In this document: positions 2,098 to 22,211 of the stretch, in pieces
Position numbering within the stretch: position 1 is the stretch's first letter
Layout: every line of letters begins with the position of its first letter
Assembly: GCA_016782645.1 (NCBI GenBank)
Contig: JADHYC010000001.1
Location: 16,579 to 80,578 of the forward strand
Reading direction: 5' to 3'
From: Fidelibacterota bacterium
Lineage (GTDB): Bacteria > Fidelibacterota > UBA2242
DNA: 64,000 nt
Position numbers and translations under genes: made by a program
The notes under the pieces: generated by a model
The model's database searches: none
Seen by the model: the letters and a program-made list of their open reading frames with translations, nothing else
Told to the model about the DNA's origin: nothing

Positions 2098-4506
2098 ATG
2101 GCCAATCCTTATCGAAAAAATACAGATTTCAATCCAAAGCAAAGTAAAAGAATAGAATTTAACACAAAAGATTCTCTCGGCTTTGATAAGATTCGTGACC
2201 TTATTAATAAAGAAACGGTTTCTGGAGCTGGCTATTTGAGAGTAGAAAAACTCAAACCGCTTTCCAATCTTAGCGAAATAATTGTTCAGCAGAACAGAAT
2301 ATCTGCTTTGAGGAATTTACTTGATGATAGTAATGACCTACCGATAGATAATTTTCACGATATACGTGAGGATTTGAAGAGATGCAAAGTAAGCGGTTCT
2401 TATTTCAGCGCAGAGACACTTCTTCATGTTAGCAATATACTAAGACAGTCCGATACTATCCGGCAATACTTTCGTGCCAACAAAGAGACTATGAAATCTC
2501 TTGAATTTCTTATAACTGGATTTAGTCCTTTGAACCCGATTTGTAGGTTAATAAATAGAATTGTAGATGAGGAGGCGAGGATACGGGACAGAGCCAGTCC
2601 GGAATTAGCAAAAATCAGAAGAGATGTGCAGCGTGAAGTGAGGCAACTTCATCGGGCGATTGCTCGATTAATGAATAAAGCGAAAAGCGAAGATTGGTTG
2701 CATGAGGAGAACCCGACAATTCGTGAGGGAAGATTAGTTCTACCGTTAAGAACGGAATATAAACGAAAAGTTCATGGAATAATTCACGGTCAGTCGGCAA
2801 CGGGGGCAACAACTTTTGTTGAACCTATGGAGGCAGTTGAAATTAATAACCGATTAAAGGAATTAGAACAGGAAGAAAAAGAAGAAGTGATAAAAATACT
2901 TCAGCAGATTAGTGGGGAGATAAGACCGTACTTTCCTGAATTGGAGCGGAATATTGTTATATTGATTGAACTGGATTTTATAAGGGCGTGTGCTAAGTTT
3001 TCCGAAAAGTTTAAATGTTCACCTCCCACAATATCAGAACAGGATAGAAAAATTGTATTAATTAATTCGAAGCATCCTCTGCTTTCATTGGTTAAGAAGG
3101 TTGTTCCGTTGAATCTCTCTCTTCCTGATGGTATAAGTTCAATGATTATTACCGGTCCTAATGCAGGCGGTAAAACTGTGGCAATGAAAACTGTTGGGCT
3201 TTTAAGTGTAATGGCGATGTCCGGACTGCATATTCCAGCTGATGAAGGAAGCCATATTCCTTTCTTTGATAAATTTCTTGTTGACATTGGTGATCTACAA
3301 TCAATAGAAAATGATCTCTCAACTTTCTCCTCACATGTCTCAAATCTAAAGGTATTTTTAGATGAATCTACGGATCAAAGTCTGGTTCTTGTTGATGAAT
3401 TGGGAACAGGAACAGAACCGGTCGAAGGTTCGGCACTTGGACAAGCAGTTCTTGAGAGATTAGTTGAAAAAAGAGCCTTTACTATTGTTACAACTCATCA
3501 TAATGCACTTAAAGCATTTGCAGATAAAAGTCCGAATGTAGTTAATGCTGCAATGGAATTTAGTACAGATACATTGAGTCCAACTTATCGTTTACGTTTA
3601 GGTTATCCTGGAAGCAGTTATGCACTTGAAATTTCTAAGCGCCTGGGTCTGTCCGATAAAGTGATAGACCGTGCCCGTAAAATTATGGGTAGAGATACAG
3701 TTAAACTTGAAAATCTTCTTCTTGAAGCTGAAAAACTAAAGACTAAACTTGAGGAAAAAAATAAAACCGTTGCTCAAAATAAAAAGACACTTGATAAAAT
3801 TGTTTCTGAATATGAATCCCGACTTGATTCCGTCAATCAGAAGTATGAAAAAATGGATAAGGAGCTTGCCGTAAAACTTGAAAAAATTGCTAATGAATCG
3901 CGATCTCGTATTGAATCAGCTGTTAAAGAAATACGTGAGAGAGATGCTGACCATGAATCAATAGTTCATGCGAGGAAAGTTATAGAAGAAATAAAGCAAA
4001 ATGCAATAATGCATAAAAAGGTTCAAAAGAGAGTTAGCTATTCAAAGGGACAGGGGGGAGAAATCACGGTAGGAAGCTGGGTGAAGGTGGAGAGTGTTGA
4101 TGAGCCGGGACAGGTGATAAATATTTCTGAAAAGAGTAATAGAGTTGCTGTTGAGATTGGCAGTAAAACCCTCTGGGTATCACATGATTCGATCAAACTG
4201 CTGGAAACCTTGGAAAAGAAAAAAGATATTTATGAATCTCCAGTAGCTATTAAAGCGGAGCAGGTGCCATCTCAGAAATTAGACCTGAGAGGAATGAGAG
4301 TTGATGAAGCGGAAAATGCTTTAATTAAGTATCTTGACCAGGTAATTTTATCAGGACTGAATGAGATTGAAATTATTCATGGAATGGGAACAGGAGTGCT
4401 TCAAAAAATGGTCTGGGATGTGTTGAAAAATTTCCCTGGAGTGCGTAAGTTTCATTTTGAAGATTTTGATAGGGGGGGCACAGGAGCTACAATAGTAAAG
4501 TTATGA
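2098..4506 (+). CDS. mutS2: Endonuclease MutS2 (MutS domain V ATPase plus C-terminal Smr domain)
   Basis: Walker A (GPNAGGKT), MutS signature region (STFSSHVSNL...VLVDELGTGTEP) and a C-terminal Smr domain (LDLRGMRVDEAENAL...IIHGMGTGVL). The ORF extends upstream to 1954, but the MutS2 N-terminus (FDKIRDLI) begins at ATG 2098. Confidence 0.9.
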   Translation: MANPYRKNTDFNPKQSKRIEFNTKDSLGFDKIRDLINKETVSGAGYLRVEKLKPLSNLSEIIVQQNRISALRNLLDDSNDLPIDNFHDIREDLKRCKVSGSYFSAETLLHVSNILRQSDTIRQYFRANKETMKSLEFLITGFSPLNPICRLINRIVDEEARIRDRASPELAKIRRDVQREVRQLHRAIARLMNKAKSEDWLHEENPTIREGRLVLPLRTEYKRKVHGIIHGQSATGATTFVEPMEAVEINNRLKELEQEEKEEVIKILQQISGEIRPYFPELERNIVILIELDFIRACAKFSEKFKCSPPTISEQDRKIVLINSKHPLLSLVKKVVPLNLSLPDGISSMIITGPNAGGKTVAMKTVGLLSVMAMSGLHIPADEGSHIPFFDKFLVDIGDLQSIENDLSTFSSHVSNLKVFLDESTDQSLVLVDELGTGTEPVEGSALGQAVLERLVEKRAFTIVTTHHNALKAFADKSPNVVNAAMEFSTDTLSPTYRLRLGYPGSSYALEISKRLGLSDKVIDRARKIMGRDTVKLENLLLEAEKLKTKLEEKNKTVAQNKKTLDKIVSEYESRLDSVNQKYEKMDKELAVKLEKIANESRSRIESAVKEIRERDADHESIVHARKVIEEIKQNAIMHKKVQKRVSYSKGQGGEITVGSWVKVESVDEPGQVINISEKSNRVAVEIGSKTLWVSHDSIKLLETLEKKKDIYESPVAIKAEQVPSQKLDLRGMRVDEAENALIKYLDQVILSGLNEIEIIHGMGTGVLQKMVWDVLKNFPGVRKFHFEDFDRGGTGATIVKL

Positions 4507-4626
4507 GTTTTACAAATGCAGATTGTAAATATCAAATTGCAAATTGCAAGGTTTCTTGGAGCAATATTAAGTTAATTTTTTATATTGAACTTTGTGTCTT
4601 TGTGACTTAGTGGCGATTGAGAAATA

Positions 4627-6453
4627 ATGGCAAGAATTCCTCTATTAACAGTAGAACAAATAAAAGCCAGAGCGGACATTCTTGATATCGTTTCTGAATT
4701 TGTACAATTGAAGCGGTGTGGGAGAAATTACTTCGGTTTGTGTCCTTTTCATGAAGAAAAAACACCTTCTTTTAGCGTTAATCCATCCATGGCTATTTTC
4801 CACTGCTTCGGATGCGGAAAGGGCGGTAACGCTATAAGTTTCATAATGGAATATGAAAAAATCGGCTATGTTGAAGCTCTTAAACGTCTTGCTGATAGAT
4901 ATGGAATTGAGATCGAATGGGAAGAAGGAGATACTTCTAGAAGAGGTGAAGCGGAATTACTTTATGAATTACATGATATAGCGAATAATTTTTACAATAG
5001 ACAGCTCTCCTCGGAAAAAGGGGCTGAGGCTCTAAAATATTTAATCGGTAGAGGGTTCAACAAATCTATTCTAAATCAATTTTCTATTGGTTTTGCTACT
5101 GACGAATGGGAAGGACTTTTTAAGCAATTGGATAAAAACCGCTTTACTCCAAATATTCTAGAAAAATCAGGTTTATTTGTTAGGAAAGATGGTAATAATT
5201 TCTACGACCGCTTTAGGAACAGGATAATATTTCCTATTAAAAATATTTCCGGCAGGGTGATAGCATTTGGTGGAAGAACGATGAACCCGGATGAGGACGC
5301 AAAATACATCAATTCACCTGAAACGCCTATCTATTTTAAAAGTGGTATTTTTTACGGGTTATCTGCTTCTAAAGAAGCTATCAGAAAATCAAATGAAGCA
5401 ATTCTTGTAGAGGGATACACCGACTTTTTACGTTTCTACACTTCTGGTATAACAAATGTAATTGCGGCTTCAGGAACCGCTCTAACATATCACCATGCGC
5501 ATATCCTGAAACGTTTCGCTTCAAAAGTTTCTCTCTGCTACGATGGTGATGAAGCGGGCAAGAAGGCAACTGAAAGGGCAGGATTTATTCTTCTCAGGGA
5601 GGGACTTGATGTTAGAGCGATTGTTCTTCCAGAGGGTGAAGACCCCGATTCACTTTTGAAAAACAGTGACATTTCTGCTTTTAAAAAGATTTATGATGGA
5701 GCGCTCGAATTTATCCAATTTTATATTGACCTGCATAAAGATTCAATGACTACACCGGCTTCAAAGGCACTGTTTGTTGAGCAAATGGTTGAAGAGTTGG
5801 CACAAATCAGGAATCCGGTGACAAGGGATTTCTTCATTAAAAAAGTAGCCGAACATTTAGGGTTGAAAGTAGATATTATTTACAGTCAGATTCGTTATTT
5901 CTATCGAAAGAAGGGAACTCAGAAAAGAGCTTTACCTCGATCTGAAGAGCAAGTAAAATATAAAATACAATTAAATACTGCTCCTGAAAAAGCAGAATAT
6001 GAACTTTTAAAGGTTTTTCTCTGTCAACAAAAAGACCTGCAGAAGATTATAATAAATAATATTAAGAAAAAGAATTTTAAGCATCCTGTTCTAAGTAAGT
6101 TGGCGAAGAAGATTATTGATATGATAAAATCAGGAGATGAGTTTGTTCCTTCAGATATTTTCAATTACGAATTGTCGGAAAAGGAAAAGCTATATCTGTC
6201 GAGACTTATTCTTGAATCAGAGTCACTGCAAACTGAAACTGATTTAAAGGATTTATATAATCTTGCAACTGATTGTATGATAGTGCTGCTGACAATAGAA
6301 GTGGATAAGGATATTCGTGAATTGAGAGAAAAAATAAAGGAAGCAGAGAAGAAGGGAAAAGAAACAGTTGATTTTGTTATAGAGTTATCAAAGCAGCGAA
6401 ATAGAAGACGTGAAATAGAAAAGCGACTGCACAAGATTGAAATCAGGGAATAA
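4627..6453 (+). CDS. dnaG: DNA primase DnaG
   Basis: CHC2 zinc finger (CPFHEEKTPSFSVN...FHCFGCGKGG), RNA polymerase domain and Toprim (ILVEGYTDFL...DGDEAG). Confidence 0.9.
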   Translation: MARIPLLTVEQIKARADILDIVSEFVQLKRCGRNYFGLCPFHEEKTPSFSVNPSMAIFHCFGCGKGGNAISFIMEYEKIGYVEALKRLADRYGIEIEWEEGDTSRRGEAELLYELHDIANNFYNRQLSSEKGAEALKYLIGRGFNKSILNQFSIGFATDEWEGLFKQLDKNRFTPNILEKSGLFVRKDGNNFYDRFRNRIIFPIKNISGRVIAFGGRTMNPDEDAKYINSPETPIYFKSGIFYGLSASKEAIRKSNEAILVEGYTDFLRFYTSGITNVIAASGTALTYHHAHILKRFASKVSLCYDGDEAGKKATERAGFILLREGLDVRAIVLPEGEDPDSLLKNSDISAFKKIYDGALEFIQFYIDLHKDSMTTPASKALFVEQMVEELAQIRNPVTRDFFIKKVAEHLGLKVDIIYSQIRYFYRKKGTQKRALPRSEEQVKYKIQLNTAPEKAEYELLKVFLCQQKDLQKIIINNIKKKNFKHPVLSKLAKKIIDMIKSGDEFVPSDIFNYELSEKEKLYLSRLILESESLQTETDLKDLYNLATDCMIVLLTIEVDKDIRELREKIKEAEKKGKETVDFVIELSKQRNRRREIEKRLHKIEIRE

Positions 6454-6492: not shown

Positions 6493-7017
6493 ATGATATT
6501 TGTCTTCCTAACAGTATTTGTGGAATCTGTCAATTTGCTACTTCAACTAAAGGGTAAAATATTAAGTCGCTGGTTTGGTAAAAACGCTTTTGTAATACAT
6601 GCAGTAATCACTTTAGCTTTCTGGACTGTTGCATTTTGTTTCGTTTTTGCTTTACAATTTGAAAAACATCCGTATTTTCACAATAGCGATTTTCTGAAGT
6701 ATGCCGGATTTGCGTTGATGATTCCAGGATTAATCATGGCGGTTTGTGGATTCAAATTACTGGGATTGAAGCGTGCACTGTGCCTCAATTTTTTTAAAGA
6801 GAATGTACCGCTGATCGATCATCCATTGTATCATTATGTGAAGAATCCTTCTGATTACGGTTTCTGGTTGATGATGCTTGGTTTTGCGCTCTTTAGTCGA
6901 TCGCATTATAATCTGATCATTGCGCTTGAATTTATTGCCCTCATGATACCGCATATTTACCTGGAAAATGTGCCGCTAAAAGCAAAAAAAGGTAACATAC
7001 GAGATATTAGTATTTAA
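6493..7017 (+). CDS. Membrane methyltransferase family protein (isoprenylcysteine carboxyl methyltransferase / phospholipid methyltransferase-like)
   Basis: About four TM helices and the C-terminal motif DHPLYHYVKNPSDYGFWLMMLGFAL, which resembles the ICMT/PEMT consensus (..G.Y...RHP.Y.G..l..lG..l). Confidence 0.45.
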   Translation: MIFVFLTVFVESVNLLLQLKGKILSRWFGKNAFVIHAVITLAFWTVAFCFVFALQFEKHPYFHNSDFLKYAGFALMIPGLIMAVCGFKLLGLKRALCLNFFKENVPLIDHPLYHYVKNPSDYGFWLMMLGFALFSRSHYNLIIALEFIALMIPHIYLENVPLKAKKGNIRDISI

Positions 7018-7049
7018 CCCGGCTGCAAAACTCACGACTAAATATAAAC

Positions 7050-7091
7050 GCTCTACTATGAGGTAGGCTTATAGTAGAGCTTGTAAATTTT
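7050..7091 (+). terminator. Stem-loop downstream of the 6493..7017 gene (possible intrinsic terminator)
   Basis: gctctactat-[gaggtaggctt]-atagtagagc is a perfect 10-bp inverted repeat followed by ttgtaaatttt. The T-tract is weak. Confidence 0.35.
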
Positions 7092-7540
7092 AACGGTCTG
7101 CTGCCGTTTTTCTATTTATCTATTGCTTTTACAAATAATTGAAATAAATTATTAATACATTTAGGGGCAGTGCTAAAAAGAGGAGGAAAGGCAGCCGAAA
7201 AGTTTTTGGTGCCTAACTTTGAAATTTGGAGTTGTAATGAGACGAAAGCCCGATCACAGAATCTGCAAGCCATTTCTCGAGGAGGATTTTCAAAAGATTC
7301 TTTTCCTCTGGAGTTTTATATCGTACCAAACTTACAAAACAGTCAATAATGTAATAAGGCTATGTGTCCGAAACTCACATTCCGTCCTGAACATCACAAC
7401 TTAATTATTCCCTTCAATACCAATGACTTTATTGCAGGATATATCTACCGCTCGATAAAAAGAGCATCTTCAGTTCACGCCCGTTGGCTGCATGATGTTG
7501 GATTCACACTTGATTATAGGAAATTCAAATTCTTCACCTT

Positions 7541-7832
7541 CTCCCGGGGGGATGTTTGAATCGAACTAAAGTAGAATTGTCCCGCTTTCAGCGTGATCTC
7601 CGCTGCGTTTCGAAAATCTTCTTAGTTTGCTGTGGAATGTAGTGTAGCAGTACCGGCTTGGTGGGGAATCAAACTAAAGCGTCGAACACGTCAGTATCTG
7701 ATAGAATTGTCCCGACTTTGATGTGTGATAAATTCAAGTATTGTCACAGAAAAAGAGTTCTGCGAAACGGGGTTGAGCAATCCTGACTTGTCGAGGAATA
7801 TAACTAAAGCATCGAAGAGATCCCCGGGACAA
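7541..7832. repeat. Composite repeat element in a 1-kb non-coding gap: three direct copies of GAATNNAACTAAAG, two copies of TAGAATTGTCCCG(C/A)TTT, and GC-rich ends TCCCGGGG...CCCCGGGA in inverted orientation
   Basis: Read directly from the sequence: GAATCGAACTAAAG at 7558, GAATCAAACTAAAG at 7666 and GAATATAACTAAAG at 7796; tagaattgtcccg at 7572 and 7702; ctcccggggggat at 7541 and gatccccgggacaa at 7818-7832. Confidence 0.4.
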
Positions 7833-8032
7833 GGATTGAAACAATTTGAAATATAAAGGACTTAATTTCAGTAGTTAATTGAAGGCGTCTCTTTTTCAAA
7901 GCGTCTCATAAAGGAGCAGGGCACTTTTTACTATCAACTTATATATTCACCAGGTTGCATTATTTGTTTATGTTTTGTTACTTATGTTCGAATTATGGGA
8001 ATTAAGGAAAATATATTATTTGGAGTTTTCAA

Positions 8033-9064
8033 ATGAAGAAGTTTTTACTTTTTATAATGTTTATTTTTCTCATTAGTTGCGGTGGTGGAAAGGAAGCATT
8101 AGAAGAAGAGCAATCAGAAGAGCAAAAAGTTCAGGGCGAAGAGGCAGCAGTAAGTGATGTGCCTTCGATTGTTACGTCGAATTTACATTTTTTACCTTCT
8201 TATCAGGAGCATGGTGGTCCACATATTCTAATAGATTCTCTTAATATTGTCATACCAATTTCGGATGCTGATTTTATGGATATGGTAAGATTTTCAACCA
8301 GGGAGTATAAAAAGTTAAAAAGAGTCTCTACCGCAAAGCCACCTCAAAAAGGAAAAGCAGTCTCTTCAAAGAAATCGAAAAAGGGTAAGGTGGAACGGAA
8401 AATTAAACCGCCTAATAAAAAGGTTCTCGAGGTATCTTATTTACCAGCATGGGATATTTTAAACAATAAAGCAGTTTATTATGAGGGAAATATTGAGGTT
8501 AACCTTCCACCAAAAGTAAAAATATATAAGGATAAGAATAAAAAATTTCACTATATAGATTATTATGGAAAGGATTCCAAAGTTGCTATTTGTAAAGGGA
8601 TATTTTATTATGCAAAAAGTGGAGTTATTCTTGAACAACGTATCGAGTTTGCTGGGAAAGGAGAGTTGACCGATATCAGTCCCTACTATTTTGATTTACG
8701 GTTTAATCTTATAAAGTCTGAATGGATAGTAAAATGTTTGTATTCAAACGAGAATAAGCTAAAAAAGGTAATTGTCATGGACGATTTCGGTAACATATTC
8801 TATAGTTATAGATTTCAATATGTGGATACTAAAGACTTCAAGTTTACTGTAGTTAAGGTCTTCGATAAGGAAAATAAGAAAGCGGGAAGTTATGAACTGT
8901 TTTGTGATAAATGGGGTATGGTTGAAAAAAGGGTAGAATATGATGAAAACGGAAGGAGAAAAGGATATAAGTTATATACTTCCGATTTGGAAAAGAGAGA
9001 GATTATTGTAGATAGTTACGATAACGAGGGAAATCATATTGTAAGAATACGACAGAATTTATAA
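8033..9064 (+). CDS. Hypothetical lysine-rich lipoprotein
   Basis: Signal peptide plus lipobox (MKKFLLFIMFIFLISCGGG). No recognisable catalytic motif. Its stop overlaps the next gene's start (TAATG), so it is operonic. Confidence 0.5.
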   Translation: MKKFLLFIMFIFLISCGGGKEALEEEQSEEQKVQGEEAAVSDVPSIVTSNLHFLPSYQEHGGPHILIDSLNIVIPISDADFMDMVRFSTREYKKLKRVSTAKPPQKGKAVSSKKSKKGKVERKIKPPNKKVLEVSYLPAWDILNNKAVYYEGNIEVNLPPKVKIYKDKNKKFHYIDYYGKDSKVAICKGIFYYAKSGVILEQRIEFAGKGELTDISPYYFDLRFNLIKSEWIVKCLYSNENKLKKVIVMDDFGNIFYSYRFQYVDTKDFKFTVVKVFDKENKKAGSYELFCDKWGMVEKRVEYDENGRRKGYKLYTSDLEKREIIVDSYDNEGNHIVRIRQNL

Positions 9065-11244
9065 TGATAATAAAAAAAGTTGCTTATATATTCTTATCGC
9101 TTCTGATTGCTTTAATAGTATGTTTTTTTATTACTTGTGATAGTGAAGAGGACGTAGATACCGAGCCTCCAACTGTATCAATTACTTCTCCCCTTGACAG
9201 TCAAGCAGTATATGATGAATTTTCAATTAAGGTTTCCGCGGTAGATGATGAGGGAGTTAATTTGGTTGAGTTTTATATTGATGGAGCAATTCATCCAAAT
9301 GGTATTGATATTTCAAGTCCTTATCAATATTTATGGAATACAACAGACGAGCAAGATTCTTCATTTCATAATATATATGCTATTGCTTATGACTATTCAA
9401 ATAACTTGAGAATTTCTGACACTATTACATGTATTGTGGATAATAATGGAAGACCACCAGTTGCAGTTGATATATATGTCCCTACCGACATTAAAAAACA
9501 TTCAATGGTATTGAGATGGGAGCGGAGTATTGATAAGGATTTTAAGGAATATCGCTTATTTAGAAATATTTCAGATAAATGGGATTCAACCGCAACTCTT
9601 GTTTCTATTAAACCGGATATAGAGACTACTCATTTCAAAGATATTGGATTGAATGCAGATTCATCTATGGTTACACCGTGGGGTTTAGAAGAAAATAAGA
9701 CTTATTTCTATAAGTTGATAATCAGAGATACTCTTGATCTTGAGGGGGAATCTAATGTTGTTAGTGCCACAACAAAGATTCCAGAATCTGTCGTTCTAAA
9801 GGAAAGTTATCAATCTACCAAGTACTCCGCTACGATTAGCTGGTTTCCAACAAATGAAGATGTAAGATATTTCCGTATTCATCGTTCAAAGCTTGAAAAT
9901 ATGGGAAGTTCGATAGCAGATTCCGTTGGAATTGCAAATTCTTATGAATCTACCTTTATTGACACCGGACTCGCTGCTCTCTCAGTTTATCATTATCGAG
10001 TATTTCTTATTGATTCAGCCGGTTATTCGGTTGGAAGTAATATAATAAGAGTTCAAACAATCGGTATTCAGACAATTGAGTTAGAAACTCCAATAGAAAA
10101 GGATATTGCTAAATGTTCAATAACATTGGGATGGACAAAAAGCATTGAAGAAGATGACACGGATTATATTTTGTACAGGGCTAAACACTCCGGAGTTACT
10201 ATTCAGGATTCTCTTGTGGTTGTGATCAGTGATAAAGATATAACTGTTTATAATGATACTCAACTTGAGCAGGGAGAAATGTACTATTATGTTCTTTACT
10301 TGAAAGACAGCAGGGAGAATCAGAGTATAAGTAATGAAGTGAGTGCTACGACATTGAGTATTCAACCTTTACCTATATCAAGTATTGTAGTTGAGAAATA
10401 TGAGGCAACTCTTCAATGGGGAAAATATACTGATACTGATTTTGATCGGTTTATTTTATACAGAGGTTTAACTGCCGGATTTGATACGAGTTATGCGGAT
10501 GAGAGATTCCATTTTGATGATGTAGATTTGACACAATATACAGATACCGGACTGGATTTAAATACCAGTTATTTCTATAAATTTTTTGTATTTGATACTT
10601 TTGGTTATGGTGCTTTTAGTGAAGTACCCGTTCAAACAAAGAGTGTGCAATCAGTAGAGATCAAAGATGTTGAACCTGTCAATGATCAGTTTTTCAGATT
10701 GACCTATACAATGAATCGAGCAGATAAGGATTTTGATCACTATTCAATTTTCCGAAGTGACTCAACTCCAGATGTTGATCGAAATAGCCTTTTAGTAGGC
10801 ACGGTTTCGTCTCCTTCTGATACTGTTTTTGATGATTATATTCAAATGGAACAATTAAAGCAATATTTTTACCGAGTTTATGTATTTGATGAAAGGGGAA
10901 ATTCTTGCTCCGGTAGTAATGTAAAAGGAGATACATTGAATTCACCTCCTGACCCTGTAACGTTGTATTTTCAAAGTTCTACAAACACTACAATAGAGTT
11001 AAGATGGTCTAAAAATCAGAATGAGGATTTTTTAAGATTCGAACTTTATAGATGTTCTCATGATGATTTCACAAAAAATTCTACAGATGCAATAAAAATT
11101 GTAAGCCTGTATGATAAGGATTTAACAAGTTATATTGACCAAAACCTTCCAAGTGGAGTATTATATTACTACAGAATATACGTTTTTGATATTGGAGAAT
11201 TGTGCGTAGCAAGTAATATTGTTAGTGGATACACAATTCCGTAA
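9064..11244 (+). CDS. Secreted protein with about seven tandem fibronectin-III-like repeats
   Basis: N-terminal hydrophobic anchor/signal. The repeats share a W..S.D.DF..Y.L(F/Y)R signature: WERSIDKDFKEYRLFR, WFPTNEDVRYFRIHRS, WTKSIEEDDTDYILYRA, WGKYTDTDFDRFILYRG, MNRADKDFDHYSIFRS, WSKNQNEDFLRFELYRC. Confidence 0.55.
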   Translation: MIIKKVAYIFLSLLIALIVCFFITCDSEEDVDTEPPTVSITSPLDSQAVYDEFSIKVSAVDDEGVNLVEFYIDGAIHPNGIDISSPYQYLWNTTDEQDSSFHNIYAIAYDYSNNLRISDTITCIVDNNGRPPVAVDIYVPTDIKKHSMVLRWERSIDKDFKEYRLFRNISDKWDSTATLVSIKPDIETTHFKDIGLNADSSMVTPWGLEENKTYFYKLIIRDTLDLEGESNVVSATTKIPESVVLKESYQSTKYSATISWFPTNEDVRYFRIHRSKLENMGSSIADSVGIANSYESTFIDTGLAALSVYHYRVFLIDSAGYSVGSNIIRVQTIGIQTIELETPIEKDIAKCSITLGWTKSIEEDDTDYILYRAKHSGVTIQDSLVVVISDKDITVYNDTQLEQGEMYYYVLYLKDSRENQSISNEVSATTLSIQPLPISSIVVEKYEATLQWGKYTDTDFDRFILYRGLTAGFDTSYADERFHFDDVDLTQYTDTGLDLNTSYFYKFFVFDTFGYGAFSEVPVQTKSVQSVEIKDVEPVNDQFFRLTYTMNRADKDFDHYSIFRSDSTPDVDRNSLLVGTVSSPSDTVFDDYIQMEQLKQYFYRVYVFDERGNSCSGSNVKGDTLNSPPDPVTLYFQSSTNTTIELRWSKNQNEDFLRFELYRCSHDDFTKNSTDAIKIVSLYDKDLTSYIDQNLPSGVLYYYRIYVFDIGELCVASNIVSGYTIP

Positions 11245-11339
11245 ATGTTATTTATAATGAGAGTTTTAAAAGTAATTTCCCTTTTACTGGATGCCGGTCA
11301 CTAAAGAGAGGCAATGAAGTTTTTAGACATCCTGGAGTT

Positions 11340-12158
11340 GTGAAAGTTAGTATTAATGTGAAGATTATAAAAATTATTGTACGAATTAGTTTAGTCTTTA
11401 TAGTATCTATTCTTTTTATTATGTCCTGTGAAGAAGAACCTAAAACAGGTATAAATTCACTTCGATTTGAAGGTGATTATTATCTTGAGATTCCTAATTC
11501 TGCTTCTATTAAGTCTTTAGTAGCTGGAAAATATTTTACAATAGAGATGTGGGCAGCTGGAAACAGTAGTTCACCTGATATTGCAAGAACTCTGTTTATG
11601 GTTGGTAATAATGAAGGTGGTAATGAGATAGGAATTTATCAAGGACCTTATGATTCGAGTTTAGTCTGGGTTTATGTAGATGACAAATTATTTGGGTCTT
11701 TTAATATTCCCAATTTGGATTGGCGGGTTAAAAAGATACATTATTTAAGCCTTGTGAGAGTTGATAATTTTATTTCATTCTATTTTGATGGAACATTAAG
11801 AGGGATGAAATCGATTTCAGACCTTGATTTAGATATAGGTTCGAGTAATATGCTGATAGGAGCGGACTATGATCCGCCTGGTGTAAATAGTAATGAGGGT
11901 AACTTTTGGTATGGGTATATTGATGAGGTGCGAATTTGGAACAAAGACCTAATATCAACGGATGTGGAATTTCATTATAAGAATCCTGATAAACTTACAC
12001 AACACTACTCTAATGAAGGTTTGAATAATCTTGTTGGATTATGGCGGTTTAATAATGAGGAAAGTGAAGTTATGCCTGACGAAAGTGGCTCACAGAATGA
12101 TGCATATATTCGTGGTTATAATAGTATAGTATATTGGGATACGTTCGGAGTAGACTGA
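11340..12158 (+). CDS. Lipoprotein with a concanavalin-A-like / LamG (laminin G) domain
   Basis: Signal peptide plus lipobox (LVFIVSILFIMSCEE). The LamG-type motif YIDEVRIWNKDLISTD is present. The GTG start is at 11340; an alternative GTG lies at 11358. Confidence 0.55.
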   Translation: MKVSINVKIIKIIVRISLVFIVSILFIMSCEEEPKTGINSLRFEGDYYLEIPNSASIKSLVAGKYFTIEMWAAGNSSSPDIARTLFMVGNNEGGNEIGIYQGPYDSSLVWVYVDDKLFGSFNIPNLDWRVKKIHYLSLVRVDNFISFYFDGTLRGMKSISDLDLDIGSSNMLIGADYDPPGVNSNEGNFWYGYIDEVRIWNKDLISTDVEFHYKNPDKLTQHYSNEGLNNLVGLWRFNNEESEVMPDESGSQNDAYIRGYNSIVYWDTFGVD

Positions 12159-12166
12159 TTTCAATA

Positions 12167-12289
12167 GGCTACGAAGTACGACCCCGTAGCCAGATATTTC
12201 AATTCACATTACTCGTTCCGGGGCTGTACTCCGGAATGGAATCACGATTTAGATCGAGAGTTTTGGCTACAGAGCAGAGCCCTGTAGCC
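12167..12289. repeat. Three hairpins between convergent genes; hairpins 1 and 3 are copies of one 29-nt element carrying a compensatory base-pair change
   Basis: ggctacGaagtacgacccCgtagccag (12167-12193) versus ggctacAgagcagagcccTgtagccag (12265-12291); in the second copy the G-C pair is replaced by A-T. A central hairpin ttccggggctgtactccggaa lies at 12216-12236. Confidence 0.4.
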
Positions 12290-12365
12290 AGTAAAAATAC
12301 TATTTATAAGTTGAATTTTATCAATTATTATGTTCAGGAATTCAGTATATATTTTAAGAAGCTTA

Positions 12366-20738: not shown

Positions 20739-20994
20739 GGTTTTGGAAGATTTAATCAAATAATTCACCCTGGCTTACCTTAGGTTTACCTTTAGAAGGA
20801 GAAAGTGCGAAAAACCTCGCTGTTTCTTAATAAGAATAAAACCATATAAGATATCCCATCCACCTTATGCTGCTATATATAAAAGATTTTCAATTTTTTA
20901 TGAATATATTATATATGAAAATACAGGATTAGAAAAATCCCTCTTTGAATTGTAAAAGTTGCTTAGTAATTTTTATAAAGGAGGTGAAGTAGTA

Positions 20995-21377
20995 ATGGTT
21001 CAGAATATAGATAAAAGAAAATGTTACCGGTTTGAAGTATCTGGCGGTAAAGTGAAATATAAAAAAGTTAAAGTATTCGATTTTCATAAAGGTTTTTCTA
21101 TAGATTGTAGGTTGATCAATTTAAGTAAAGGCGGGGCGAACTTTACTTGTGAAGAGATCATTCGTAAAGGCAAGAAATTGATTGTCAAATTATTAATTCC
21201 CGATTACGAGCCATTGGAATTACTTGGAAAGTAAGTTGGCAAAGATCCTCCAGAGATGATTACTATTTAACTATGGGAGTTGTGTTCATACCGTTTGGTA
21301 CAGGTACATATATGAATCCAAAAGAGGCGCTTGATGTTCTCAGACGGCTCGATGCGCAATATGTAAAGGATAGGTGA
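20995..21377 (+). pseudogene. PilZ-domain (c-di-GMP receptor) gene interrupted by an apparent +2 frame shift near 21230
   Basis: Frame A holds the RxxxR (RKCYRFEV) and D/NxSxGG (NLSKGGANF) PilZ motifs and ends at TAA 21232-21234. The expected C-terminal PilZ strand (YYLTMGVVFIPF...EALDVLRRLDAQYV) continues in the +2 frame to TGA at 21375-21377. AAGGAGG ribosome-binding site before ATG 20995. Confidence 0.5.
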
Positions 21378-21512
21378 AAAAGATAGTTAAACACATTTTT
21401 ACAATCAATATTTTGCAGTACTGGAATGAATCGAAAAAATTAAATAAAAGATGGTTGTTTTTAAGATAAATTATAATAATGATTTTGGAGGGAAATTCAT
21501 TTTATACAAAAT

Positions 21513-21871
21513 GTGAATAGGATACTTATTATTAATGATGATGAGCAAATCCGGGAGATAATAGGAGAAATGCTAAAATCTTTTAGATATGAATATGAAA
21601 TGGCCTGAAAGGTGAAAATATACATCTTTGGGAACGTATATTTGCTGTTGCAGATGTATTCGATGCACTTACAACGAAACGTCCTTATAAAGGGGCATTA
21701 GAAAATGAGGAAGCATTTGATATTTTGAGAAAGGGGCGAGATTTTCACTTTGATCTTAAAATCGTTGATTTATTTTTTAACCGACTGGATAAGATATTGA
21801 AGATTCAGAAAAAATATCAGGAAGGAAAAGTAGAAACTGAAATTTTGGATATTGATAGATTAAGATACTAG
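21513..21871 (+). pseudogene. Remnant of a response-regulator / HD-GYP phosphodiesterase gene: 31-aa receiver N-terminus fused out of frame to the last ~85 aa of an HD-GYP domain
   Basis: VNRILIINDDEQIREIIGEMLKSFRYEYEMA* is a receiver-domain start. From 21599 in another frame, NGLKGENIHLWERIFAVADVFDALTTKRPYKGALENEEAFDILRKGRDFHFDLKIVDLFFNRLD is the HD-GYP C-terminal signature. The middle of the gene is missing. Confidence 0.55.
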
Positions 21872-22211
21872 TTGAGAATATTTTTAAGTTTATTTGTAAT
21901 AGGGGTGGTAGTTATTTAAGTTTTAGTTCTTTTTGGAAGTTAGATTTTTCAAGGAGATATTTTCTATTTTTTCACATTCTTCTTAAATATATTGAACATG
22001 CAAAAATTAAAAAAACCATTGAGTTTTCATTTTCATATTTATCACATCTGTGATCTATATTAGAGTTGAGAGATTGAGTATGAATATGGGAAAAGTTAAG
22101 AGAATTTCGGTGTTAATGAGAAAAATTAAAATAGTTTAAAATTTAAACTTCAATAGTATGCAAAATAATTACAATACAATTCTAACTGTATCACTATAGA
22201 ATTATTATATT

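Follow-up and report, generated by a model that had tools for sequence, protein, structure and literature searches.

The window analyzed here, a 64-kb stretch of DNA from a Candidatus Marinimicrobia genome, contains at positions 7018–8032 a gap between genes in which a first-pass annotation, made from the sequence alone, had noted a GC-richer block of direct and inverted repeats. The gap is present at this position, flanked by an open reading frame (ORF) for a PEMT-like protein (6493–7017) and by an ORF for a lipoprotein-like protein (8033–9064), whose product is 100% identical to MBL7134978.1 from a Candidatus Marinimicrobia metagenome-assembled genome. It is no assembly artefact, because three other independent assemblies contain the whole gap with 100% identity; a fourth contig agrees with the window over the first 235 nt of the gap. 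It holds a truncated cas6 gene followed by a block of degenerate repeats, both of which we compared with homologous loci. The analysis covers the 64-kb window, and loci designated by L and a number are homologous stretches from other assemblies and metagenomes.

The left part of the gap carries the stump of a cas6b pseudogene. ORF 7362–7559, on the forward strand, comprises 65 codons and a stop. Its residues 1–62 match the N-termini of Cas6 proteins of ~260 aa, and codons 63–65 and the stop are supplied by a deletion junction and by the first bases of the first repeat of the block (R1). The ORF matches the Pfam family PF21350, Cas6_I-A N-terminal (E = 4.4e-7, 30.5 bits for a cutoff of 27), the PADLOC Cas6b profile (E = 2.8e-13, only at profile positions 1–55 of 235), and a Cas6 protein of solved structure, PDB 5yi6 (E = 3e-4). 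An exhaustive phmmer search with the 65-aa sequence gave 71 matches with E ≤ 0.001, nearly all of them Cas6-sized proteins or fragments, aligned at Cas6 residues ~4–62 with up to 49% identity; the top match, P0001, is a repetitive non-Cas6 sequence and was disregarded. A word-index protein search returned nothing, and by exact look-up the sequence is not on record. Forty full-length Cas6 homologs align by tblastn only to 7353–7556, and the remaining ~200 Cas6 residues give no alignment in the gap at E ≤ 10 and none beyond chance across the window. What is left falls short of a full-length Cas6b, a protein of about 235–270 aa with a C-terminal domain and a glycine-rich loop. The first-pass annotation had seen no credible ORF in this kilobase and had thus overlooked a recognizable Cas6 fragment; the degraded pseudogene that it had mentioned as a contrary outcome is indeed what occupies the left part of the gap.

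The homologous cas6 genes occupy the first position in type I-B and type III operons. In the window, no other cas gene was found among the ORFs of at least 120 aa, which are housekeeping and secreted-protease genes. In the parts covered, the Cas6-homolog loci L029–L032 contain no CRISPR array and so give no cognate repeat for the Cas6 lineage of the stump. A tandem repeat with a unit of ~65 nt (AAACCGGAGTTTGGGAAGGAGG...), not CRISPR-like, is present at 3119–3391 of L030, a few kb upstream of a cas6/type III-A operon.

The last position homologous to cas6 is 7547, and the first one homologous to R1 of a related locus, L081, is 7554, which places a first deletion junction at 7548–7553. From 7554 to 7842, all on the forward strand, the block is ordered R1-S1-R2-S2-R3, where R stands for degenerate repeats and S for spacer-like segments. 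R1 (GTTTGAATCGAACTAAAGTAGAATTGTCCCG), which may resemble the 30-nt repeat of Pyrococcus furiosus, extends from 7554 to 7584 and S1, 45 nt long, from 7585 to 7629. The long repeat R2 (7630–7714) is made up of a 36-nt extension (7630–7665), a 5' half (GAATCAAACTAAAG, 7666–7679), a 22-nt insertion with two putative hairpins (CGTCGAACACG followed by TCAGTATCTGA, 7680–7701), and a 3' half (TAGAATTGTCCCG, 7702–7714). S2 (7715–7759), also of 45 nt and unrelated to S1, contains an internal palindrome (TGTGATAA..TTGTCACA). The terminal repeat R3 (7760–7842, core 7796–7842) comprises a 36-nt extension (7760–7795), a 5' half (GAATATAACTAAAG, 7796–7809), a 20-nt insertion (CATCGAAGAGA followed by TCCCCGGGA, 7810–7829), and a 3' half (CAAGGATTGAAAC, 7830–7842) identical to the end of the canonical repeat described below. 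Seen otherwise, 7572–7701 and 7702–7831 are two 130-nt units with an identical 13-nt head, an unrelated 45-nt middle, and a tail of ~67% identity.

The motifs on which the first-pass annotation drew are all present. There are three exact copies of GAATNNAACTAAAG, at 7558, 7666, and 7796 (spacing of 108 and 130 nt), and no further one in the 64 kb; with one mismatch allowed, 0.75 chance matches are expected per whole window. TAGAATTGTCCCG occurs twice, at 7572 and 7702, and the GC-rich inverted ends at 7537–7549 and 7822–7834 are 92% complementary over 13 nt, each arm including the self-complementary hexamer CCCGGG. The GC content of the block is 0.42–0.46, compared with ~0.28–0.37 in its surroundings. 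Neither a k-mer array scan nor TRF detected a regular array in the window, and the geometry is not that of a bona fide array, as the copies share only 13- to 14-nt cores at spacings of 108 and 130 nt. The Rfam scan that had been proposed, run at the gathering threshold on the whole window and in E-value mode on 6900–8150 and 7540–7850, gave no family at threshold, CRISPR-DR covariance models included. It did give sub-threshold CRISPR-DR matches, only at R3, the best being CRISPR-DR9 at 7814–7842 (16.3 bits for a threshold of 45). A hidden Markov model (HMM) built from 13 repeats of the family described below had its best match in the window at 7829–7842 (E = 0.033) and did not match R1 or R2.

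Three relatives were reached through homologs of the downstream lipoprotein gene. L006 (GCA_030606855.1) is 96.3% identical to the window over 1260 nt in the lipoprotein gene region and carries, directly upstream of this same gene, a regular CRISPR array that runs off the end of the contig, JAUWFO010000055.1. Its 37-nt repeat (GTCTAAAACCAAAATCCAATAGAACAAGGATTGAAAC) alternates with spacers of 35–38 nt, scores 43.5 bits against the Rfam family CRISPR-DR7 (gathering threshold 37), and has a 5-bp stem and a 10-nt loop. The last repeat of this array consists of the first 24 nt of the canonical repeat, a 21-nt insertion, and CAAGGATTGAAAC. It aligns with the third copy of the window at the same site (92% identity over 7812–7849), so that the core of R3 (7796–7842) is the ortholog of a real terminal repeat. 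The homology continues through the array trailer and the region upstream of the lipoprotein gene (7843–8032), which are ~96% identical to L006. The statement of the first-pass annotation that the block is not a CRISPR array is therefore misleading, because the repeat that ends the block has its ortholog at the end of a genuine CRISPR-DR7 array in a 96%-identical strain. Descent from an array is indicated by orthologous position and by sequence continuity with both L006 and L081.

L081 was retrieved by a metagenome pattern scan that yielded at least 79 loci; among the matches listed, it alone shows extended homology, and short pieces are found in L082 and L035. Its flank is 93% identical to the window in ungapped columns. 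Read on the minus strand, L081 encodes from the left an AbrB/PIN toxin–antitoxin pair (PIN by Pfam match, the AbrB-like antitoxin read from the sequence only) and an N-terminal stump of cas4, called as a pseudogene (Pfam Cas4, E = 7.6e-6 with an in-frame stop replaced by K). After ~90 nt of AT-rich sequence follow R1, S2, an R3-like repeat with a 22-nt insertion, a 39-nt spacer, a canonical DR7 repeat (43.5 bits against CRISPR-DR7, for the gathering threshold of 37), and a trailer that starts with TATTTGATATTTAAT as it does in L006. The succession R1-S2-R3 is therefore common to L081 and the window, with 31 of 31 nt identical in R1 and 44 of 45 in S2. Upstream of R1, L081 has the AT-rich sequence and the cas4 stump instead of cas6. 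S1, which together with the extension and the rest of R2 forms one unit, is missing with that unit from L081. Arrays are seen to gain and lose units in this way, and the two copies of TAGAATTGTCCCG are obvious recombination points. The match in L082 abuts a contig end. In L035, a lone R1-like sequence at 402–430 (ATGTTTGAATGAAACTAAAGTAGAATTGT), identical to window positions 7552–7580 at 27 of 29 nt, lies on an AT-rich 1-kb metagenome contig with no surrounding array. A special conservation of the block (88–91%) relative to the L081 flank (76% BLAST identity) was considered and dropped after realignment, because the flank reaches 93% identity when two indels are left out of the comparison, and the block 88–99% by segment.

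A near-identical repeat belongs to an intact type I-B locus, L022/L025 (CAYTUQ010000046.1), which has the order cas8b-like ORF, cas7, cas5, cas3, cas4, ~170 nt, and an array of more than 54 repeats. The terminal repeat of this array bears a 22-nt insertion at the same position as in L006. Scanning a genome collection with the 3' part of the canonical repeat revealed a widespread repeat family and found neither this species nor a close cas6.

The junctions can be placed to the base, and they suggest how the present organization could have arisen. The ancestral locus would have comprised cas6b, other type I-B cas genes (cas8b, cas7, cas5, cas3, and cas4), and R1 to R3, followed by a canonical 37-nt CRISPR-DR7 array, its insertion-bearing terminal repeat, the trailer, and the lipoprotein gene. 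One deletion, presumably the first, would have joined codon 62 of cas6 to the first base of R1, with the loss of the rest of cas6, of any other cas genes, and of all else upstream of R1. R3 is chimeric: left of TCGAAGA (7812–7818) it follows R3 of L081, and right of it the terminal repeat and trailer of L006. Such a chimera is the product expected of recombination between two insertion-bearing repeats that deletes the canonical array. A second deletion would thus correspond to recombination of R3 with the terminal repeat within their shared insertion (TCGAAGA) and would have removed the whole canonical array. Compared with L006, 49 nt are missing from the window at CAATTTGA (7842–7849), of which L081 keeps the first part (ATTTGATATTTAAT); a third deletion, between two CAATTTGA direct repeats, would account for this loss from the trailer.

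We conclude that the gap is very probably the remnant of an almost wholly deleted type I-B CRISPR-Cas locus. Among the three options offered by the first-pass annotation (a structured RNA, a miniature inverted-repeat element, or the relic of a degenerate repeat array), the last was the correct one, and the case is one of ordinary defense-system decay, not of a new RNA or mobile element. Since Cas6, Cascade genes, and an intact repeat are all absent from the window, the block is most likely inactive. It would now be functionless, decaying non-coding DNA whose repeats, GC content, and palindromes were inherited from CRISPR repeats. CRISPR arrays commonly mutate at their 3' end by substitutions and indels and lose repeats and spacers by recombination (PMC4869251).

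Several observations weigh against this interpretation. The closest match to the cas6 stump is only 49% identical and no intact high-identity ortholog is known, so that the ancestral gene order is deduced from more distant loci. R1 and R2 are recognized by no CRISPR-DR model and by no HMM of the repeat family; their architecture and their links to R3, L081, and L082 suggest a CRISPR origin. Spacers of 45 nt and repeats of ~85 nt with a shared 36-nt extension are an abnormal geometry for an array. Moreover, the canonical repeat of L081 has the degenerate repeats on its cas-proximal (leader) side, opposite to the usual decay at the trailer end. Finally, a trans-acting CRISPR-Cas system may be encoded elsewhere in the genome, beyond the 64-kb window. 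As for the origin of the spacers, four 22- to 23-mers taken from the L006 spacers, S1, and S2 had no exact match in viral contigs, a test of low power.

The remnant resembles decaying or orphan arrays and isolated cas remnants described previously (Zhang and Ye 2017, PMC5294841; CRISPRDetect, PMC4869251). As in these, a cas pseudogene fragment adjoins degenerate repeats, the terminal repeat is mutated by indels, units appear to have been lost by recombination between repeats, and a close strain keeps the array. It differs from them by the near-completeness of the decay, no two repeats passing any array detector, by its unusually long units (~85-nt repeats and 45-nt spacers), and by breakpoints that are mapped to the base. 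With type I-B CRISPR-DR7 (RF01320) loci such as L022/L025, it shares the identical 3' half CAAGGATTGAAAC, the insertion of 20–22 nt at the same loop position, and a cas6 fragment of Cas6b type; a relative has a cas4 remnant beside the same repeats. Unlike these loci, the window lacks effector and adaptation genes as well as a canonical repeat, and the AUCCA stem arm of the DR7 hairpin is missing from the 5' halves of its repeats (GAATNNAACTAAAG).

An unannotated kilobase thereby gains a defined history. A Marinimicrobia population would have lost its type I-B CRISPR-Cas system at this site, where an array persists in a sister strain whose adjoining genes are 96% identical, and the breakpoints point to the route of this loss, namely recombination between repeats and between short direct repeats. 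The case illustrates CRISPR-Cas loss clearly and is also a warning that repeat-rich candidates for non-coding RNAs located near short ORFs should be checked for cas fragments.

The insertion is shared by six repeat copies: R2 and R3 of the window (7680–7701 and 7810–7829), the terminal repeats of L006 (218–238) and L025, R3 of L081 (~381–360, minus strand), and the repeat of L082 (~1205–1184, minus strand). It is 20–22 nt long, always located 13 nt before the 3' end of the repeat, which corresponds to the loop of the DR7 hairpin, and consists of two tandem 11-nt palindromes, each with a 4-bp stem and a 3-nt loop. In the alignment of the six sequences, 85% of the cells pair, compared with 69% in shuffles and 27–49% in slid controls, and six of the eight pairs change on both sides for 2.5 expected; none of 500 shuffles reached the observed values. 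Hairpin 1 is perfect in L082 and in the terminal repeats of L006 and L025, the last being the only copy in which both hairpins are perfect, and the copies of the window and of L081 each have one or two mismatches in it. In two intact arrays, from different contigs, the insertion marks the terminal repeat. Given the small sample, from which the structure itself was derived, we take this covariation as a lead and not as a finding. The insertion could be a conserved functional module of array ends in the type I-B/CRISPR-DR7 lineage instead of mutational debris, which we regard as unlikely. If it were such a module, it might alter the processing of the last repeat by Cas6, protect the last CRISPR RNA (crRNA), or stop read-through, and the block formed by R1, a spacer-like segment, and an insertion-bearing repeat would be a crRNA-like element that has its own role and outlived the cas genes. 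If general, a covarying two-hairpin insertion in the terminal repeat would be a new feature of array ends.

One alternative to simple decay is a regulatory role. The block could be, or have been, a degenerated mini-CRISPR of the CreA/CreR type, producing crRNA-like RNAs that guide Cascade to repress a cas or toxin promoter, and could have been kept for that role. Such elements are described for type I-B, I-E, and V-A systems and contain two or three strongly degenerated repeats flanking spacer-like segments, beside the cas genes in the type I-B case (10.1101/2023.03.10.532045; PMC8501985; PMC9458426). The block fits this architecture, which is also expected of a decaying array, and in L081 it stands between cas remnants and the canonical repeat. 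Furthermore, R1 and S2 of the window differ at a single position from those of L081 (75 of 76 nt identical, vs. 44 of 50 in the adjacent segment; Fisher p = 0.015), although the conservation of the block as a whole is not above the 93% identity of the flank. The first repeat of CreA/CreR-type elements keeps the 8 nt that become the 5' handle (10.1101/2023.03.10.532045), whereas R1 and R2 of the window have lost it and end in ATTGTCCC, not in the conserved ATTGAAAC. This canonical end is kept by R3 only, and no repeat follows R3. We found no partial promoter target: elsewhere in the window, S1, S2, and the sequence following R3 have exact matches of at most 12 nt, for ~11 expected, in a test that is incomplete because, except for the cas6 promoter, the original cas promoters have been lost by deletion. 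No Cascade or Cas6 gene is present in the 64 kb. Taken together, these data make a regulatory mini-CRISPR very unlikely.

The structured non-coding RNA or riboregulator proposed by the first-pass annotation would extend over 7541–7832 and be closed by long-range pairing of the GC-rich ends. The minimum free energy (MFE) fold does pair these two ends, and S1 and S2 each form a local hairpin. However, the folding energy is within the range of shuffled sequences (z = −0.95 for the forward strand and −1.65 for the reverse strand) and the block matches no Rfam family at threshold. The closing arms are not conserved either, L081 having neither the left arm nor, on the right, the CCCCGGGA arm, and both arms rest on the palindrome CCCGGG. 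In addition, a whole 130-nt repeat-spacer unit is dispensable in L081, and covariation in the block is confined to the two 11-nt mini-hairpins of the insertion. We consider such an RNA highly improbable.

The remaining option, a miniature inverted-repeat transposable element (MITE), would here have inserted into cas6 and disrupted this gene. It would fit the 13-nt inverted ends at 7537–7549 and 7822–7834 and the start of the block where cas6 homology stops. Yet the cas6 sequence does not resume 3' of the block, where the DNA is the array trailer common to L006, and no target-site duplication is visible around the imperfect 13-nt arms. No other copy of the three motifs exists in the 64 kb, and homologs elsewhere adjoin CRISPR repeats, cas remnants, or a contig end, all of which leaves a MITE insertion extremely improbable. 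Lastly, there is next to no likelihood that the ORF encodes a small protein of 65 residues with a newly acquired function: it has an uninterrupted frame, with an ATG and, four bases before it, an AAGG, but it covers only Cas6b profile positions 1–55 of 235, less than one ferredoxin-like domain, takes its last three codons and stop from the junction and R1, and has no same or close protein sequence on record.

Other features of the gap lie outside the remnant or at its upstream edge. Just 3' of the PEMT-like gene, hairpins at 7040–7108 on the forward strand comprise an inverted repeat (7040–7062/7068–7090) and a terminator-like stem (7092–7108) followed by a T run; they are probably the end of the upstream transcription unit and distinct from the decayed CRISPR-Cas locus. 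The non-coding segment 7174–7275, upstream of the cas6 stump on the same strand, contains a hairpin (GGCAGCCGAAAAG/TTTTTGGTGCC) and is possibly the old promoter or 5' region of cas6. Other small ORFs of the gap (7170–7349, 7219–7404, 7112–7273 on the minus strand, 7658–7786, and 7725–7856) have no Pfam, NCBIfam, or PADLOC match.

The same segment is conserved at 83% in L034 (676–951), from a 92%-related strain, where the similarity includes the hairpin and the start of a short ORF, MRRKP. L034 then diverges into a different gene (MKENSKIVTVKIIQVQFPNNPMNRFDIPKFRG...), whose 31-aa N-terminus has no family match. In L007 (1118–2215), from an 83%-related strain, ~1.1 kb without called genes precedes the lipoprotein gene; this stretch has nothing in common with the window upstream of 7954, and the preceding gene differs (BFN/UVR domains). 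The DNA 3' of the PEMT-like gene thus seems to be a hotspot of variation in content. L081 passes straight from the array trailer into the final ~100 nt of the LamG-like gene, so that the lipoprotein gene, the Big_7/fn3 gene, and most of the LamG gene (~4 kb) are absent; the corresponding neighborhood of the window, 8033–12050, is structurally variable between close relatives.

Elsewhere in the window, the ORF list has no entry of 120 aa or more for ~1.5 kb at 20739–22211. Between the LamG-like gene and a convergent M48 peptidase gene lies a hairpin-rich intergenic region (12159–12300), in which the whole-window scan found no Rfam family at the gathering threshold. It is ~93–99% conserved in L081 (1–200) and L006 (~4620–4760), and L081 has an extra 33-nt self-complementary insertion in one of its loops.

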